The translations under genes and the position numbers were made by a program. From Candidatus Latescibacterota bacterium (GTDB taxonomy: Bacteria; Latescibacterota; UBA2968; UBA8231): DNA of 64,000 nt. A model generated the notes under the pieces. The model was not told the origin of the DNA and ran no database searches. It saw only the letters and a program-made list of their open reading frames with translations. The stretch spans positions 960,001-1,024,000 of the forward strand of contig CBDFJF010000001.1 in assembly GCA_965248265.1 (NCBI GenBank), written 5' to 3'. Position 1 is the stretch's first letter, and every line of letters begins with the position of its first letter. This document shows positions 4,659 to 51,576 of the stretch, one piece after another.

Positions 4659-5591
4659 ATGAAAATGTTCAGAACTGACTTATTGCTTGGAGTCATGATT
4701 ACGGTAGTCTCGCAGGGAGCCTGTAACGGAGAGTCGGTAAGCAAGATCGCGTTCCAGCAGTTCGCCGGTGGTCCTCTTCTCGTCATGGATGTAGATGGAA
4801 GTAACCAGAAGCAGTTAACAAGCGCAATGGGAAGGTACCCAACGTGGTCTCCAGATGGCACCAAGCTGGCGTTTGCCAAGGGGGAAGATATTTACATGAT
4901 AAGCCTTGATGGAGGAGATGAGACAAGACTGACACAAGGCCTGTTTCCCGCCTGGTCGCCAGATGGAAGGCAGATTGCCTACAGCCGGATTCGGTCAGAT
5001 TTTGTGAATGCTGATATATACGTGGCGGATATACATGGCAATAATGAGAGAAAAGTAACGGAAGGTATGTATCCTTCTTGGTCCCCGGGTGGAGATGTGA
5101 TTGCTTACAGTAAGGGTGGTTTGAGCAAGCAATGGGCAGTCGATCGTTCGACCAAGATCTATACAGTGGGTATTGATGGAAGCGATCAAAGAGAACTGAT
5201 GAACGGACTTATCCCGTCCTGGTCACCGGATGGCAGTAAGATTCTATTCATGAGAGTAGATGGCGGCCCTCTGTTTGGCGGTGAGTCAAGCGTAAGCATC
5301 TACGTGATGGATGATGATGGAAGCAATCAGGTGCGATTAGTAGAGGGTGTTGCTGCTACTGAGGCAATCTCGTTTGGTCTCACGCGGTCGGGGTCTTGGT
5401 CACCGGATGGAAGCAGAATCGTATTTGCTCAGATGGCGGCCACGGGGGCGTTCATTTGCGTCATGGATGCGGACGGGAGTAACCCAGTCAAATTAACAGA
5501 GGGGGTAAACCCTTCTTGGTCGCCCTTTATTGAAGCGACAACCGTTACTGAAGACAGGACGTGGGGTCGAATAAAATCCGACGCGCCCTAA
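4659..5591 (+). CDS. TolB-like PD40-repeat beta-propeller protein with C-terminal TWGRIK motif (cassette 2)
   Basis: Six PxWSPDG-type repeats; signal peptide; ends TTVTEDRTWGRIKSDAP. Confidence 0.85.
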   Translation: MKMFRTDLLLGVMITVVSQGACNGESVSKIAFQQFAGGPLLVMDVDGSNQKQLTSAMGRYPTWSPDGTKLAFAKGEDIYMISLDGGDETRLTQGLFPAWSPDGRQIAYSRIRSDFVNADIYVADIHGNNERKVTEGMYPSWSPGGDVIAYSKGGLSKQWAVDRSTKIYTVGIDGSDQRELMNGLIPSWSPDGSKILFMRVDGGPLFGGESSVSIYVMDDDGSNQVRLVEGVAATEAISFGLTRSGSWSPDGSRIVFAQMAATGAFICVMDADGSNPVKLTEGVNPSWSPFIEATTVTEDRTWGRIKSDAP

Positions 5592-5643
5592 TGTAGATGG
5601 ATCCTGTCTTCGCTCAAGGTTTCTGTTATTACGGAGACGGTGC

Positions 5644-6960
5644 TGCTGCAGCAACCGGGCTGATAGGTAACAGTCTAAACCGGGTTGATGGGTGACACTA
5701 TTGTTTTGATTGAATTCACTCCCGTACGATCATGTCCCTCTCGTCGACGGTGGCTAGGAGGACGGTGTTGAAGTAGATGGCCCAGACGCCGTCGTCGATC
5801 TCCTCGAGACCGATGTCGAGATGCTTGAGAGACTGAGCGATGAAGATGAGCTTGTGGCCGAGGCGTATGGTCCCGGCTCGGGTGACGTGCTTGATGACGA
5901 AGTGACCGGGGTACTCAATGGTCGGCATGCGGCCGGGATAGGGCCGGGGTGATGGGTGGTACCGGGAGCCAGGAGTCTTGCCGTTGAGGGCGTCATGGGG
6001 ACGCTCGTCGTTGTAGAGCTGTCGGAAGCGCTGGAAGGATCGCTGCTGGGCGGCCTTGTTGGCGGCGGGTGGCCGACAGGTAGCGGCCTTCAAGGTGCGA
6101 TGCATGCGTTCGTGGGCGCCATTTTCCTGCGGCGATGCCGGGCGGATCCGCTGGTGCACGATGCCGAGCCTCATCCACCAAACGTTGAGTCGGCATAGCC
6201 CATGCAATCCTCTGGAAGCAAAGGGAACGCCGTTGTCGGTGCGAATGGCCTGAGGCAGGCCGAATTCGCGGAAGGCTCTCTCGAAGACCGGACGCGCATG
6301 CAAGGTCTTGATGTCGGGCAGGGCGCGGCAGGTCAGGAGATAGCGAGTGTGCTGATCGCTGATGGTGAGAGGGAAACACCAAACTCCGTTCTTGGTAGGA
6401 AATTGGCCTTTGAAGTCGGCCGTCCACAGATCGTTGGGGTTGTCGGTGGTCGGCGGCACGGCTCCGGGGTGCTGACGTGGGCGTCGTCGTCGTCGCTTCT
6501 TCACCAGGCCTTCGCGCACCAGCAGATCGCCTGCCGTACTGACCGCCGGCCAGGAGCAGATGTGCGGATGTCGAGGCGCCAGCCAGTCCAACAGTTTGTT
6601 CGGTCCCCAATCGGGGTGCCGTGTGCGCGCTCCGAGAATGAGCTCGGCAATCTCTGGCGCCATGCGATGCGGACAGGTGTGGGGCGCGTGACTGCGGTCC
6701 TGTAACCCGGGCACCCCCTCTTCGGCGTGCCGCTGAAGCCACTTGTATCCGGTTTTGCGGCTGATCCCGTATCGCTCGCACAGCTCCGCTCTCGAGTAGT
6801 GCCCGCGCTGATCGTCGGCGATAAATCGCTTACGTTGTTCCATGGGTGCTGTCTCCATCCAGGGCATCGACCAACCTCCCAATTGGGGTTGGTCAAAAAG
6901 TAGAAGGAGTGTCACCCATCAACCCGGTCAGATGTGTTACCAATCTACCCGGTTTGTACC
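5644..6960 (-). mobile_element. IS481-family insertion sequence, copy 1 (about 1.3 kb)
   Basis: 1317 bp shared with 50160-51476 (2 differences seen); imperfect terminal IRs of about 50 bp, each with two accggg..gat.ggt.aca repeats; flanked by GTGC on both sides. Confidence 0.92.
5716..6867 (-). CDS. IS481-family DDE transposase
   Basis: MPWMET start after GGGAGG RBS; HTH (GISRKTGYKWLQR); rve core WTADFKG, IRTDNG, PQENGAHERMHRTLK, YNDERPH. Confidence 0.93.
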   Translation of the reverse strand: MPWMETAPMEQRKRFIADDQRGHYSRAELCERYGISRKTGYKWLQRHAEEGVPGLQDRSHAPHTCPHRMAPEIAELILGARTRHPDWGPNKLLDWLAPRHPHICSWPAVSTAGDLLVREGLVKKRRRRRPRQHPGAVPPTTDNPNDLWTADFKGQFPTKNGVWCFPLTISDQHTRYLLTCRALPDIKTLHARPVFERAFREFGLPQAIRTDNGVPFASRGLHGLCRLNVWWMRLGIVHQRIRPASPQENGAHERMHRTLKAATCRPPAANKAAQQRSFQRFRQLYNDERPHDALNGKTPGSRYHPSPRPYPGRMPTIEYPGHFVIKHVTRAGTIRLGHKLIFIAQSLKHLDIGLEEIDDGVWAIYFNTVLLATVDERDMIVRE

Positions 6961-6969
6961 GTGCACGAC

Positions 6970-7058
6970 ATATAACATCGCAATTCATGGCTTCGGGGCA
7001 TTCGCCCCTACGCTGCAACCCTCCGGCGGCGGGTTCATGAATTGGAGAAACGATATAT
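6970..7058 (+). other. attC site (R'' ATATAAC ... R' GATATAT)
   Basis: Imperfect inverted repeat atataac-atcg-caattcatg ... catgaattg-gagaaac-gatatat, 89 bp. Confidence 0.8.
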
Positions 7059-7115: not shown

Positions 7116-7739
7116 ATGTCGCACGTATTGGTCGATCAAACCCTGTTCGGCATCCAGATGAGCAGCAAGCCCAAATGCATTATCGTCACTGGCCGGCCGG
7201 GATCCGGGAAGACGAGCCTATCCAGAATACTCGCAGATCGGCTCTGGATGCCGGTCATCAGTCGCGATGAGATGAAGGAGGGTTATGTAAACACCCATGG
7301 CGTCAAGCACGATCAGCTTCCCCCGGATACCAATGCCGTGGTTTCAGATTTCTTCTTTGAGATGGTGAATCAATACCTTGTCGGTAAGATTTCTGTCATC
7401 GTAGAGGCGGCCTTCCAGCACAAGGTCTGGGAACCAAGGATGCCTAAGATCCGTGAATTGGGCACTCCCTTCATTGTTGTATGCTCCGTTGACGGCATGG
7501 TAGCAGCAAAGCGCCATCTGCAGCGGGGACTGGATGACTCCAACCGGGAGTTCTACCATGGTGATAGGCGCGTCGCCATCTACAAGGAAACAGGTGAGAT
7601 GTCGCCTCCAGGCAGCTATGTTGCTCCGGATTTTGACGTGCCAACTGTTCAAGTCTCAACGGAAGCAGAATACTCACCTAGCATCGATGAGATAGTGAAG
7701 CGCTTCCGACTATTGGATACTCCTTCGGAGACGAAGTGA
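7116..7739 (+). CDS. AAA_33-type P-loop kinase/ATPase (cassette 3)
   Basis: Walker A GRPGSGKT, ISRDEMKE, VIVEAAF; start may be the downstream MSSKPK. Confidence 0.8.
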   Translation: MSHVLVDQTLFGIQMSSKPKCIIVTGRPGSGKTSLSRILADRLWMPVISRDEMKEGYVNTHGVKHDQLPPDTNAVVSDFFFEMVNQYLVGKISVIVEAAFQHKVWEPRMPKIRELGTPFIVVCSVDGMVAAKRHLQRGLDDSNREFYHGDRRVAIYKETGEMSPPGSYVAPDFDVPTVQVSTEAEYSPSIDEIVKRFRLLDTPSETK

Positions 7740-7755
7740 GTTGAGTTTCCACTTC

Positions 7756-7864
7756 ATATATCACAGCAATTCACGCTGCGTCGCTTCGCTCCTTGGGGCT
7801 ACGCCCACCCCGCGAGCGCGGGGTCGTGACGAGCGCGGGGTCGTGAATTGTGAAGACGTTATAG
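7756..7864 (+). other. attC site (R'' ATATATC ... R' GTTATAG) with a 17-bp internal tandem duplication
   Basis: caattcacg ... cgtgaattg stem; cgagcgcggggtcgtga at 7813-7829 and 7830-7846. Confidence 0.8.
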
Positions 7865-7913
7865 GCCATGCGCCGTTCAGGAGACTGCTATCAATCCCAA
7901 AAAAGGAGCCCGA

Positions 7914-9593
7914 ATGAGAGCCCTATGCAAATACCTAGCGTTGGCGGTGGCCTTGGTGATGTCGGCACACACAGCGTCAATTGCGGGAATGCCTTCCGAT
8001 GGCTCCATCGAGACGATCCTGCGCGACCGTATAGACCTCTATAAGAAGAGTGTTGGGATCGTTGTAGGGCTCGTAGACAGCACAGGACGCAAGGTCGCCG
8101 CCTACGGCAAGACAGACTTGAAGGGCGATACGGAAGTAGGGGCGAATACCGTGTTCGAGATCGGCTCGGTGAGTAAGGTCTTCACGGGGACGCTGCTGGC
8201 GGATGCAGTAAGGCGTGGCGAACTCCGTCTTGAGGACCCGGTTTCGAGGTTCCTCCCGGAATCCGTGACGGTTCCCTCCAAAGACGGGAAGGAGATCACA
8301 CTCCATGACCTGGCGACACACTGGTCGGGCCTCCCCCGGATGCCGACCAACTTCAACCCTGCGAATCCCCAGAATCCCTACGCCGACTACACTGTCGAGA
8401 ATATGTACGAGTTCCTGTCCGCCTACTCCCTTCCCAGACCAGTCGGGGAAGCGTTCGAGTATTCCAACCTGGGCGTCGGACTGCTGGGACACGTACTGGC
8501 ACTGAACGCGGGCGTGGACTATGAGACCCTTGTGCGGACTCGCATCTGTGGACCTCTGGGGATGGAGAGCACCGTGATCCAACTGACTCCAGATCTGCGT
8601 AATCGAATGGCAACCGGTCACACGGCGATGAGGCACCCGACACCGAACTGGGATGTCCCGACGTTCGCGGGGGCAGGAGCGATCCGCTCTACCACGGAAG
8701 ACTTGCTTCGGTTTCTGGCCGCGAATATGGCGTTAATGGAGACCGATCTCCGGGACGCGATGGAGGCAGCCCACGCTGCGCGATTGCCGGCTGGAAGACC
8801 AGAAATGGAGATAGGCTTGGGTTGGATCACCCACAAGGAGCACGAATCGGAGATCGTGTGGCACAACGGTGGGACAGGCGGGTATCACAGCTACATCGGC
8901 TGGGACCGCAAGACCGGGCTCGGGGTCGTGGTACTATCCAACTCGGCGCACGATATCGACGACATCGGCCGACACCTGATCAATCCGGCATTCGAGCTGG
9001 CAAAGCTAGAGCCTCCCAAGGAGCGGAAGGAGATCGCTCTGGGCACGGAGATATACGAGTCCTATGTCGGGGAGTACGAAGTCGCGCCTACCTTTGTGCT
9101 CACCGTAACGCACGAGCCGGAAGGACTGTACCTACAGGCAACGGGGCAACCAAAATCCCGGATACTCGCTGAAGCTGAAACCGAATTCTTCTCCGAAATC
9201 GTAGACGCGCAGATCTCGTTCAGGAAGGATGAGAGAGGCCAGGTGACCCATCTCGTACTGCACCAGGGCGCCCAGGACGTAAAGGCCATGCGACGCGGGG
9301 CGATAGTGTCCGACGAAAAGAGTATGCAGCTGGCTCCCGAGAGTCTGGACCGGTACGTCGGGAAATACGAACTGGTACCGGGCTTCGTGGTATCGATTAC
9401 AAACGAAAACGGACAGCTGATGGCGCAGGCCACAGGGCAACCAGCAATTCCGATCTATCCCGAATCCGAGACGCGCTTCGTCTACAGGGTCGTAGATGCT
9501 CAGATCGAGTTCCAATTGGATGACGCGGACCTTGTAGTGGGCCTGACCCTCTTCCAGGGAGGTAAGGAGATGCCGGCGAGGAAGATGGAGTAG
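7914..9593 (+). CDS. Serine hydrolase, beta-lactamase class C/AmpH-like, with two C-terminal DUF3471-like domains (cassette 4)
   Basis: FEIGSVSK (SxxK), YSN, WHNGGTGGY; two YVGxYE...QATGQP repeats; signal peptide. Confidence 0.88.
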   Translation: MRALCKYLALAVALVMSAHTASIAGMPSDGSIETILRDRIDLYKKSVGIVVGLVDSTGRKVAAYGKTDLKGDTEVGANTVFEIGSVSKVFTGTLLADAVRRGELRLEDPVSRFLPESVTVPSKDGKEITLHDLATHWSGLPRMPTNFNPANPQNPYADYTVENMYEFLSAYSLPRPVGEAFEYSNLGVGLLGHVLALNAGVDYETLVRTRICGPLGMESTVIQLTPDLRNRMATGHTAMRHPTPNWDVPTFAGAGAIRSTTEDLLRFLAANMALMETDLRDAMEAAHAARLPAGRPEMEIGLGWITHKEHESEIVWHNGGTGGYHSYIGWDRKTGLGVVVLSNSAHDIDDIGRHLINPAFELAKLEPPKERKEIALGTEIYESYVGEYEVAPTFVLTVTHEPEGLYLQATGQPKSRILAEAETEFFSEIVDAQISFRKDERGQVTHLVLHQGAQDVKAMRRGAIVSDEKSMQLAPESLDRYVGKYELVPGFVVSITNENGQLMAQATGQPAIPIYPESETRFVYRVVDAQIEFQLDDADLVVGLTLFQGGKEMPARKME

Positions 9594-9711
9594 GTGACCC
9601 ATGTGGTAGTATCACGGCCAGTGTGGCTGAGCAGCTCTTCCATCCGACGGGAGCGGAGGGGCTACGTAACTCGCGCGGAAGGGCCATTCCTGTGGCCGTG
9701 TGGGGCACGGC

Positions 9712-9799
9712 CTATAACATCGTGTCCCCGGCTGCGGCCCTGTCGGGCCTCCGCTGCAACCCGCCTGTGGCGAGTTCGGAGACACGAAGAACGTTATCT
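9712..9799 (+). other. attC site (R'' CTATAAC ... R' GTTATCT)
   Basis: tcgtgtc ... gacacga stem, 88 bp; shares cgctgcaaccc with the attC at 6970. Confidence 0.8.
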
Positions 9800-9820
9800 G
9801 AAATCCAATCGAACTCTATA

Positions 9821-49561: not shown

Positions 49562-49852
49562 ATGATAGCATCATTTGGCGACAGTCCAACTGCGGATCTG
49601 TTTCACGGCCGGTCTACAGCTCGTGTTCGTCGCCTGCCGCAGGACATTGTCGCTCACGCATTGGACAAACTAGATGTGTTGAACGCTGCCCATGATATAC
49701 GCGACTTGAGATCGCCACCGGGTAACCGTCTGGAGGCTCTTCGTGGCGATATGCGTGGATTTCACAGCATCCGAGTCAATATCCAATGGCGTATCGTATT
49801 TCGCTGGTCTGGAGGTGCTGCTCATGATGTTCGCCTTGTTGACTACCACTGA
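49562..49852 (+). CDS. higB: HigB toxin
   Basis: MIASFGD, DLRSPPGNRLEAL, HSIRVNIQWRIVFRW, VDYH. Confidence 0.92.
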   Translation: MIASFGDSPTADLFHGRSTARVRRLPQDIVAHALDKLDVLNAAHDIRDLRSPPGNRLEALRGDMRGFHSIRVNIQWRIVFRWSGGAAHDVRLVDYH

Positions 49853-49869
49853 TTCTTGGAGAGTTCGCT

Positions 49870-50157
49870 ATGCTACCAGAAAACCGAATCCCAGCTCACC
49901 CGGGCGAAATCTTGAACCGCGAGTTTCTCGCTCCACTCGAAATCACCCAGGTAGCATTCGCCAAACACGTCGGTGTGCCCACTCAGCGAATTAATGAAAT
50001 CGTACGCGGCAAACGCGGCGTCACTCCGGAGACTGCTTGGCTCTTCGCCCAGGCCCTCGACACCACGCCTGAGTTCTGGCTCAATCTCCAATCATTTCAT
50101 GATCTAGCTAGGACCCAGCCCAAATCTGGAGTCCGGAAACTCCGAAGGGCCGGATAG
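49870..50157 (+). CDS. higA: HigA antitoxin
   Basis: PAHPGEILNREFL, RINEIVRGKRGVTPETAWL, FWLNLQ. Confidence 0.92.
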   Translation: MLPENRIPAHPGEILNREFLAPLEITQVAFAKHVGVPTQRINEIVRGKRGVTPETAWLFAQALDTTPEFWLNLQSFHDLARTQPKSGVRKLRRAG

Positions 50158-50159
50158 TA

Positions 50160-51476
50160 TGCTGCAGCAACCGGGCTGATAGGTAACAGTCTAAACCGGG
50201 TTGATGGGTGACACTATTGTTTTGATTGAATTCACTCCCGTACGATCATGTCCCTCTCGTCGACGGTGGCTAGGAGGACGGTGTTGAAGTAGATGGCCCA
50301 GACGCCGTCGTCGATCTCCTCGAGACCGATGTCGAGATGCTTGAGAGACTGAGCGATGAAGATGAGCTTGTGGCCGAGGCGTATGGTCCCGGCTCGGGTG
50401 ACGTGCTTGATGACGAAGTGACCGGGGTACTCAATGGTCGGCATGCGGCCGGGATAGGGCCGGGGTGATGGGTGGTACCGGGAGCCAGGAGTCTTGCCGT
50501 TGAGGGCGTCATGGGGACGCTCGTCGTTGTAGAGCTGTCGGAAGCGCTGGAAGGATCGCTGCTGGGCGGCCTTGTTGGCGGCGGGTGGCCGACAGGTAGC
50601 GGCCTTCAAGGTGCGATGCATGCGTTCGTGGGCGCCATTTTCCTGCGGCGATGCCGGGCGGATCCGCTGGTGCACGATGCCGAGCCTCATCCACCAAACG
50701 TTGAGTCGGCATAGCCCATGCAATCCTCTGGAAGCAAAGGGAACGCCGTTGTCGGTGCGAATGGCCTGAGGCAGGCCGAATTCGCGGAAGGCTCTCTCGA
50801 AGACCGGACGCGCATGCAAGGTCTTGATGTCGGGCAGGGCGCGGCAGGTCAGGAGATAGCGAGTGTGCTGATCGCTGATGGTGAGAGGGAAACACCAAAC
50901 TCCGTTCTTGGTAGGAAATTGGCCTTTGAAGTCGGCCGTCCACAGATCGTTGGGGTTGTCGGTGGTCGGCGGCACGGCTCCGGGGTGCTGACGTGGGCGT
51001 CGTCGTCGTCGCTTCTTCACCAGGCCTTCGCGCACCAGCAGATCGCCTGCCGTACTGACCGCCGGCCAGGAGCAGATGTGCGGATGTCGAGGCGCCAGCC
51101 AGTCCAACAGTTTGTTCGGTCCCCAATCGGGGTGCCGTGTGCGCGCTCCGAGAATGAGCTCGGCAATCTCTGGCGCCATGCGATGCGGACAGGTGTGGGG
51201 CGCGTGACTGCGGTCCCGTAACCCGGGCACCCCCTCTTCGGCGTGCCGCTGAAGCCACTTGTATCCGGTTTTGCGGCTGATCCCGTATCGCTCGCACAGC
51301 TCCGCTCTCGAGTAATGCCCGCGCTGATCGTCGGCGATAAATCGCTTACGTTGTTCCATGGGTGCTGTCTCCATCCAGGGCATCGACCAACCTCCCAATT
51401 GGGGTTGGTCAAAAAGTAGAAGGAGTGTCACCCATCAACCCGGTCAGATGTGTTACCAATCTACCCGGTTTGTACC
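50160..51476 (-). mobile_element. IS481-family insertion sequence, copy 2
   Basis: Same 1317 bp as 5644-6960 except 51217 (C vs T) and 51315 (A vs G). Confidence 0.92.
50232..51383 (-). CDS. IS481-family DDE transposase
   Basis: Same as copy 1 except one Q/R substitution. Confidence 0.93.
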   Translation of the reverse strand: MPWMETAPMEQRKRFIADDQRGHYSRAELCERYGISRKTGYKWLQRHAEEGVPGLRDRSHAPHTCPHRMAPEIAELILGARTRHPDWGPNKLLDWLAPRHPHICSWPAVSTAGDLLVREGLVKKRRRRRPRQHPGAVPPTTDNPNDLWTADFKGQFPTKNGVWCFPLTISDQHTRYLLTCRALPDIKTLHARPVFERAFREFGLPQAIRTDNGVPFASRGLHGLCRLNVWWMRLGIVHQRIRPASPQENGAHERMHRTLKAATCRPPAANKAAQQRSFQRFRQLYNDERPHDALNGKTPGSRYHPSPRPYPGRMPTIEYPGHFVIKHVTRAGTIRLGHKLIFIAQSLKHLDIGLEEIDDGVWAIYFNTVLLATVDERDMIVRE

Positions 51477-51484
51477 TGCCCATC

Positions 51485-51576
51485 TGCTAACAACTCGTTT
51501 GCCGCTGCGCCGCCTTCGGCGGCTTGGCCTGATGGCAACCTGCTTCGCAGGTTCGGCAATCGGTAAAACGTTAAAT
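51485..51576 (+). other. attC site (R'' TGCTAAC ... R' GTTAAAT)
   Basis: ttgccg ... cggcaa stem with internal gccgccttcggcggc and aacctgcttcgcaggtt hairpins, 92 bp. Confidence 0.8.

Follow-up and report, generated by a model that had tools for sequence, protein, structure and literature searches.

The Insertion Sequence and Its Cassettes

The stretch of DNA analyzed here (the window) comprises 64,000 nucleotides of a genome assigned to a Candidatus Latescibacterota bacterium (assembly GCA_965248265.1, contig CBDFJF010000001.1, positions 960,001 to 1,024,000). It corresponds to C1:960001-1024000 of the 7.3-Mb genome G000 with its contigs C1 and C2. The window carries two copies of an insertion sequence (IS) of the IS481 family, each inserted between the open reading frame (ORF) of an integron cassette and the attC site of that cassette (Table 1). 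Judged by these copies, by the other copies in the genome and by relatives elsewhere, this IS is probably a recently active element with a DDE transposase, belonging to a clade that picks its target by the CTAAC core of the R'' box of attC.

The repeat unit measures exactly 1314 bp, and its boundaries are common to the eight full copies of the genome. The two window copies were 99.85% identical by BLAST, with two base differences read between them, and both have the same orientation. Assembly graphs were available as assembled contigs for four public runs from one sample, likely the source sample of the genome. In these graphs the 1314 bases of copy 1 formed one unitig at approximately 6-11 times the depth of the flanks. 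In the same runs a separate 850-880-nt contig of higher depth matched short IS segments between window positions 6249 and 6879 with a few differences and left out stretches of 487 and 71 nt. Probably this contig represents a relative of the IS, diverged or shortened by deletion, that was present in the sample.

A single ORF of 399 amino acids spans the element with no split frame and is the only long ORF of the IS. It lies on the minus strand in both copies (50232-51431 in copy 2), and its real start is probably slightly inside the first GTG. The deduced protein matched the Pfam families rve, rve_3, LZ_Tnp_IS481 and HTH_32. It scored 243.3 bits with the NCBIfam model NF033577 for IS481 transposases (cut-off 224), while the IS3 model gave 111 bits and remained below its cut-off of 160. 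Elements of the IS3 family carry a programmed frameshift; those of the IS481 family have one long transposase frame. The ends of the IS are imperfect inverted repeats of approximately 50 bp, each with two subterminal modules of the inverted-repeat consensus CCGGG-N6-GGT(A/G)ACA. One end begins with GGTAC when read in the sense of the transposase gene and is referred to as the GGTAY end; the other is of the TGCAG type.

An earlier note on this DNA had described two copies in the same orientation, each between a cassette ORF and an attC, with the IS end 9 nt (copy 1) and 8 nt (copy 2) from the 7-nt R'' box. The exact coordinates agree with this description (6960 versus 6970 and 51476 versus 51485). 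Copy 2 starts only 5 nt past a gene pair for a HigB-like toxin and a helix-turn-helix (HTH) antitoxin. No attC was found between the upstream ORF and the IS at either window copy. The attC sites are uninterrupted, as the note had proposed, and the IS lies within the cassette. The common flank TGC-N5-R'' which the note had read at both copies is literally present. Its TGC, however, is target duplication rather than a recognition element and is not conserved at the other copies of the genome. At copy 1 the R'-side box of the adjoining attC (7052-7058) has GAT instead of the expected GTT. The core is therefore degenerate, and cassette 1 may no longer be excisable.

Table 1: Features of the two IS copies and their surroundings, and extra IS-tip pieces. 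Positions refer to the window unless a contig (C) or a locus of a relative (L) is named.
Feature	Position	Strand	Remarks
IS copy 1	5647..6960	-	1314 bp, IS481 family; GGTAY-type end 6960 (attC side), TGCAG-type end 5647
Transposase ORF, copy 1	5716..6915	-	399 aa counted from first GTG
Left target duplication, copy 1	5640..5646	.	GTGC 5640-5643, then extra TGC 5644-5646 = first 3 IS-end bases
Right target duplication, copy 1	6961..6964	.	GTGC
IS copy 2	50163..51476	-	3-bp target duplication TGC at 50160-50162 and 51477-51479
Cassette ORF before copy 1	4659..5591	+	PD40 / beta-propeller repeats
attC of cassette 1	6970..7058	+	R'' 6970-6976 ending TAAC; nhmmer E 2.9e-15; DNA fold z -2.25
HigB-like toxin and HTH antitoxin pair, cassette content before copy 2	49562..50157	+	
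attC beside copy 2	51485..51576	+	R'' 51485-51491, R' 51570-51576; nhmmer E 1.5e-24; DNA fold z -3.04
Unoccupied attC, same small array as copy 1	7747..7869	+	nhmmer E 1.8e-13
Unoccupied attC, same small array as copy 1	9705..9809	+	R'' 9712-9718, R' 9793-9799; nhmmer E 1.3e-14
Extra TGCAG-tip pieces	5644-5646; C2:2777837-2777849; C2:429459-429472		
Extra GGTAY-tip pieces, relatives	L071 ~270-292; L046 ~2419-2455		

Copies and attC Sites throughout the Genome

BLAST detected eight full copies and one 5'-truncated copy in the genome, with identities of 99.5-100%. All nine carry the sequence TAAC outside the GGTAY end at a distance of 10-16 nt (12 nt in six copies; 10, 11 and 16 nt in one copy each). 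At random positions in related loci TAAC occurred at 8-14 nt in only 0.97% of cases. Thus, chance can be excluded. Seven of the eight full copies are bracketed by direct repeats of 3-4 bp, which read GTGC for copy 1, TGC for copy 2 and GAGC, GTC, CTC, ACA and GGAT for the others. Target duplications in the IS481 family typically measure 4-15 bp; those observed here are at the lower limit of this range or slightly below it.

The attC sites of the genome were collected by iterated nhmmer searches seeded with five attC sites. This revealed 33 sites, of which 32 lie on the plus strand of both contigs; TAAC was found at the 5' end of 26 and GTTA at the 3' end of 26. They are dispersed over the genome at eight or more places, as clusters or singly, and lie far away from its single integrase-like gene. 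A fold-based scan of the window had yielded 143 candidates, most of them false in this GC-rich DNA, and was replaced by nhmmer and by the covariance model R1 described below.

Four of the nine copies adjoin the R'' end of one of the 33 sites, and five are located where nhmmer detected no attC. If insertion were uniform across the 2593 genomic TAACA sites, four or more of nine copies would be found at attC with a probability of 3e-6; for the 454 CTAACA sites the probability is 0.003. Consequently, attC is favoured beyond the core.

Two of the five copies without attC interrupt long frames (C1:2293655 and C2:1875356). Deletion of the IS and one repeat restores frames of at least 903 and of 570 amino acids, respectively. 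The remaining three comprise two apparently intergenic copies and the truncated one. Folding of the flanking DNA was compared with that of shuffled sequences. The four attC flanks gave z values of -2.25 to -3.04, and the five flanks without attC +1.28, +0.16, -1.95, -0.10 and +0.24. Four of these five flanks thus fold no better than their shuffles, while all five carry TAAC in the range given above. The hairpin is therefore dispensable and the core is required. These results do not support the structure-directed insertion proposed in the earlier note, in which the transposase would recognize attC folded into a hairpin or cruciform, with the core as a passenger of that structure. Such recognition would explain why attC is enriched over solitary cores, and it is considered again below together with the choice between R'' and R'. 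Against it also stand the two insertions into coding frames and the duplications of 3-4 bp, which correspond to a staggered cut in duplex DNA outside the stem.

The duplications bear on a further alternative, namely that IS and attC together form a gene cassette which was placed by the integron integrase and not by transposition. Two arguments have been put forward in its favour: cassette arrays are known to contain transposase genes, and an attC invariably flanks the IS on one side. The duplications, however, bracket the IS alone. The IS copies are nearly identical, but the attC sites and upstream ORFs beside them differ. No attC separates the IS from the upstream ORF, and the copies without attC with their interrupted frames contradict such an origin. 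We regard it as extremely improbable.

The sole integrase-like gene of the genome (C1:1754213-1755118, equivalent to L089:1214-2119) is encoded on the minus strand. It reached 239.6 bits with the profile TIGR02249 (cut-off 265) and aligned in two pieces which skip profile positions 178-232. The skipped part coincides roughly with the location of the integron-specific extra segment of the integrase. The gene could encode a divergent or defective integrase. To the right of it lies an array whose attC sites and ORFs have the plus-strand orientation. One of the four attC-linked copies (C1:1757470-1758783; L089:4471-5784) is located in this array, and the other three lie in clusters far from the gene; the attC clusters inside the window contain no integrase gene. 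Among the full copies only the one in the integrase-adjacent array lacks a target duplication, and its attC-side flank resembles the flank of window copy 1. This fits an origin by recombination between two copies of the same orientation with loss of the intervening cassettes.

A host or integron protein, for example the integrase bound at an R box, might recruit the transpososome. A model is provided by the res-site-hunting transposons Tn5053 and Tn402, which use the bound resolvase. Recruitment would account for the preference for attC and for its R'' arm beyond a five-base core, and one copy does lie in the array beside the integrase-like gene. The distant location of the other three attC-linked copies and the insertions at a bare core argue against it, and we consider this explanation improbable.

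Short extra pieces of the TGCAG-type tip were found inside the target duplication at three places in the genome, with lengths of 3, 13 and 14 nt. Two relatives contain extra pieces of the GGTAY-type tip immediately outside the full element (23 nt, and 34 nt with a 3-nt spacer). Extra tip pieces are a recurrent by-product of transposition in this clade. No near-identical copy of the IS was found in the 40 related genomes searched.

Position of the Core in Related Elements

A scan of one genome per prokaryotic species yielded 80 loci with transposases 56-76% identical to that of the IS. Most of these relatives are metagenome-assembled genomes and short contigs. The labels of the metagenome-assembled genomes include Acidobacteriota, Gemmatimonadota, Rokubacteria, Planctomycetota, Deferrimicrobia, Myxococcota and others. 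In 70 of the loci 75 GGTAY-type tips were identified; five are located at contig ends, which left 70 tips for evaluation. TAAC was present 10-12 nt outside the tip in 51 of these 70. Metagenome contigs, scanned independently, contained 69 tips. Of the 63 that could be evaluated, 45 showed TAAC at the same distance. At the opposite end of the IS, which served as a control, TAAC was found in only 3 of 49 cases. In the sequence logo of the flanks TAAC is preceded by C in 40 of 44 sequences, and six bases upstream a G is less strongly conserved (31 of 44).

A FastTree phylogeny of 90 transposases united the 81 closer relatives in one clade, separate from the plasmid-borne outgroups, with a Shimodaira-Hasegawa-like support of 94. 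The targeting trait occurs throughout this clade. Its exceptions are scattered single tips, and for some of them an identical transposase sits at a proper site elsewhere. The plasmid elements outside the clade are ordinary members of the same family from Leptospira, Turneriella, Methylocystis, Bradyrhizobium, Acidisarcina, Tistrella, Cupriavidus and Azospirillum. They are mostly of approximately 1.26-1.3 kb and carry the same subterminal modules of the GGTAACA type. Inspection by eye of eight such elements (42-50% identical) revealed neither TAAC 10-12 nt outside the GGTAC-type end nor an adjoining attC in any of them.

The position data also bear on the possibility that there is no real targeting. 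In that case insertion would be near-random or would follow a motif only, and copies would survive in the harmless gap between ORF and attC. Cassette arrays are mostly silent, dispensable DNA, and according to the accessible part of Cury et al. (2016; PMC4889954), IS elements lie within cassettes of 23% of the complete integrons. Survival, however, does not predict the precision of the 10-12-nt distance on a scale of single bases, nor the fixed orientation, at 96 of 133 junctions. Moreover, the equally harmless R' side was used only once in 56 cases, and two genome copies lie inside long frames. This explanation is thus very unlikely.

Choice of the R'' End

Nine short sites adjacent to IS copies align to the canonical attC fold, in which TAAC pairs with GTTA and is followed by an unpaired spacer and the stems. 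Their consensus fold has compensatory changes in ten pairs, and the arm facing the IS contains two bulges of a single base each. The covariance model R1 was built from these nine sites. It misses attC sites with long loops, and its counts are therefore minima. With R1, the 80 genome loci yielded 96 matches and the 80 metagenome loci 66, most of them in arrays on the strand opposite to the transposase.

The 5' end of an attC was located 5-10 nt from a tip in 28 cases among the genome loci (9 seeds and 19 non-seeds) and in 27 cases among the metagenome loci, none of them a seed. These counts were made by hand from the result tables. Two of the 19 non-seed cases appeared only with the filters switched off; an unfiltered run of R1 on the 28 unresolved loci added just those two. 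In total, 55 of the attC sites beside a tip adjoined it with R'' and one, at locus L031, with R'.

The identity of the R1 5' end with R'' follows from three lines of evidence. Firstly, the extra bases of attC lie on the R''-L'' arm, and the bulges of the consensus fold are found on the arm facing the IS. Secondly, the longest frame lies on the attC strand in 30 of 36 cassette intervals. Thirdly, the array beside the integrase-like gene has the corresponding direction. A count of unpaired bases per arm in the individual sites (more on the IS side in 14, more on the far side in 10, equal in 4) was too noisy and was not used.

Of the 91 attC sites called by R1, 73 carry CTAAC at R'' and 68 carry its complement at R'. 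Since the core is about equally common at both boxes, the 55 to 1 choice of R'' cannot come from the core alone. The arms R'' and R' differ mainly in the bulged bases and the spacer. Both observations favour recognition of a folded attC. Weighed with the copies at unfolded flanks, a strictly structure-directed mechanism nevertheless appears unlikely to us, though less so than the other alternatives.

With the exception of two of the examined elements, the transposase gene runs antisense to the cassette. In the loci L083 and L087 the transposase gene is inverted relative to the ends of the element, and the GGTAY end is still found beside R''. Consequently, the target follows the sequence of the end and not the direction of the gene. 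The fixed orientation and the aim at the R'' side, which the earlier note had deduced from two copies, hold for the whole IS481 clade.

Probable Target Selection by the CTAAC Core

The reading we favour, target choice by the CTAAC core of R'', can be put as a mechanism. The element would integrate into double-stranded DNA 10-12 bp outside the core, and staggered DDE integration would produce the target duplication of 3-4 bp. Two features indicate ordinary DDE integration into duplex DNA, namely the duplication and the location of the insert outside the stem. Cleavage would take place approximately one helical turn from the bound core, in an asymmetric complex which would always turn the GGTAY end towards it. 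The attC sites generally carry this core, and their R'' arm is in addition preferred to solitary cores and to the R' box. As a consequence, most copies sit between a cassette ORF and an intact attC. We infer that the transposase itself reads the core, and its helix-turn-helix region would be the obvious candidate for this function. The core TAACA is also found within the subterminal modules of the IS. Mimicry of these repeats was considered as a mechanism and downgraded, because IS481 relatives which do not target attC share the same modules.

Several findings weigh against this reading. The five-base core explains neither the 55 to 1 preference for R'' nor the enrichment at attC. This additional preference could come from a longer two-part motif in duplex DNA, from recognition of an arm that is extruded or single-stranded, or from the binding of a host protein. 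The position rule has exceptions, since 19 of the 70 tips on genome contigs lack TAAC at 10-12 nt. These comprise two false tips, two duplicated ends, five cases of a core with a one-base change, some of them within a clear attC, one case with a second, more distant IS, and approximately nine plain exceptions. Among the 63 metagenome tips four more show TAAC at 7, 8 or 13 nt and 14 show none; the plain exceptions amount to about 7-9 in each set. Orientation is not absolute either. At L053 the opposite end of the element lies beside R'', and L031 is the case at R' mentioned above.

The sub-group closest to the IS is lax, with the motif in only one of four distinct flanks. Target fidelity may differ between sub-lineages. 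This sub-group (L010 with L105, L107, L113 with L120, and L114), whose tip shows the greatest similarity to that of the IS, is from genomes of the same family and class, and one of its four distinct flanks is attC-adjacent. A comparison of the clade with relatives that do not target attC revealed two diagnostic residues as the only separating protein features and no extra domain. Perfect 3-bp duplications were observed in just 22 of the 105 relatives with both ends found, where 1.6 are expected by chance; the fit was poorer for lengths of 2, 4 and 5 bp and for shifted boundaries. The duplications occur mostly in genomes with long contigs (7 of 8 copies in the present genome, 4 of 4 on one contig of 4.5 Mb). 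In the other relatives the flanks may have been mis-joined across the repeat or later rearranged. The distance between tip and core should be free of this error because it lies within a single read. Finally, neither an empty site nor a circle junction was found in the assembled contigs of the one sample, a result that is uninformative either way.

Three relatives show tips beside other elements. At L117 (approximately 1418-1508) the GGTAY tips of two related copies face each other at a distance of 2-3 nt, and at L128 and L151 the flank of the tip resembles the end of another IS. These patterns suggest nested or end-to-end insertions.

Relation to Known Elements at attC

Two kinds of mobile elements with a comparable habit are described in the accessible part of PMC3001079. 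The IS1111-attC elements form a monophyletic subset of their family; their insertions lie close to the 5' end of attC and run antisense to the cassettes. The group IIC-attC introns, e.g., S.ma.I2, are likewise a monophyletic subset and lie between cassette gene and attC, again close to the attC 5' end and antisense to the cassettes. Elements of the IS1111 type find their sites by pairing of a seeker RNA with the target, as stated in the accessible part of PMC11187229.

The IS1111-attC group (ISPa21, ISPst6 and ISKpn4; IS1111/IS110 families) thus shares with the present IS the location at the attC 5' end and the antisense insertion. Its members possess a DEDD transposase and a seeker RNA. In contrast, the IS described here encodes an IS481-type DDE (rve) enzyme and is consequently not a member of this group. 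Moreover, it inserts outside attC with a duplication of 3-4 bp, unlike the IS1111-attC elements. Nothing indicated a guide RNA for the IS481 element, although no search for one was made. The group IIC-attC introns consist of a ribozyme with a reverse transcriptase and insert into the bottom strand; they have neither protein nor mechanism in common with a DDE element. As to group II features, the ORF of the IS matched only transposase domains, and no Rfam search was made.

Oriented insertion beside a short recognized sequence or palindrome is familiar from DDE elements related to IS481. IS911 of the IS3 family inserts next to sequences which resemble its own inverted repeat, and IS1397 and ISKpn1 insert into repetitive extragenic palindromes (REP). 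No report of an IS481 element targeting attC was found among the matches listed for the literature searched, which did not include ISfinder, subscription journals or supplements. The accessible parts of PMC9952335, PMC10232235 and PMC3971601 mention IS481 and attC separately.

The only recognized attC hunters in the papers searched are the IS1111-type elements and the group IIC introns, and an IS with a DDE transposase, a position rule of one helical turn and a strong choice of R'' over R' would be a third, convergent one. We consider the chances evenly balanced that the clade represents an "IS481-attC" lineage in this full sense: a third, mechanistically independent mobile element homing to R'', based on a DDE protein alone, which reads both the asymmetry of attC and CTAAC and rides on a usable attC. 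The asymmetry read by such a lineage would lie in the bulged bases or the spacer, or in the folded strand. If this is true, the IS outside the stem would leave attC usable and become a passenger of the cassette, which would help to explain its presence in many phyla.

Possible Consequences for Cassette Arrays

Much gene exchange proceeds through integron cassette arrays, and parasites of attC can silence or delete cassettes or move with them. The clade described here is common in phyla of soil and sediment, e.g., Acidobacteriota and Gemmatimonadota. It offers a simple system for studying how a classical transposase gains site specificity and whether attC is read as sequence or as structure. 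The attC beside the IS should stay functional. Judging from its position within the cassette boundaries, the IS could ride along with a cassette moved by the integrase. For annotation it is relevant that recombination between equally oriented copies of one array could delete cassettes, and the copy in the integrase-adjacent array, which lacks a duplication, would fit such an event. Furthermore, a 1.3-kb repeat beside attC will break or mis-join integron assemblies.

The cassettes next to window copy 1 carry ordinary cargo. The ORF at 7116-7739 encodes an AAA_33/zeta-toxin-like kinase, and the ORF at 7914-9593 a protein of 559 amino acids with a beta-lactamase-fold domain (PF00144) and DUF3471.

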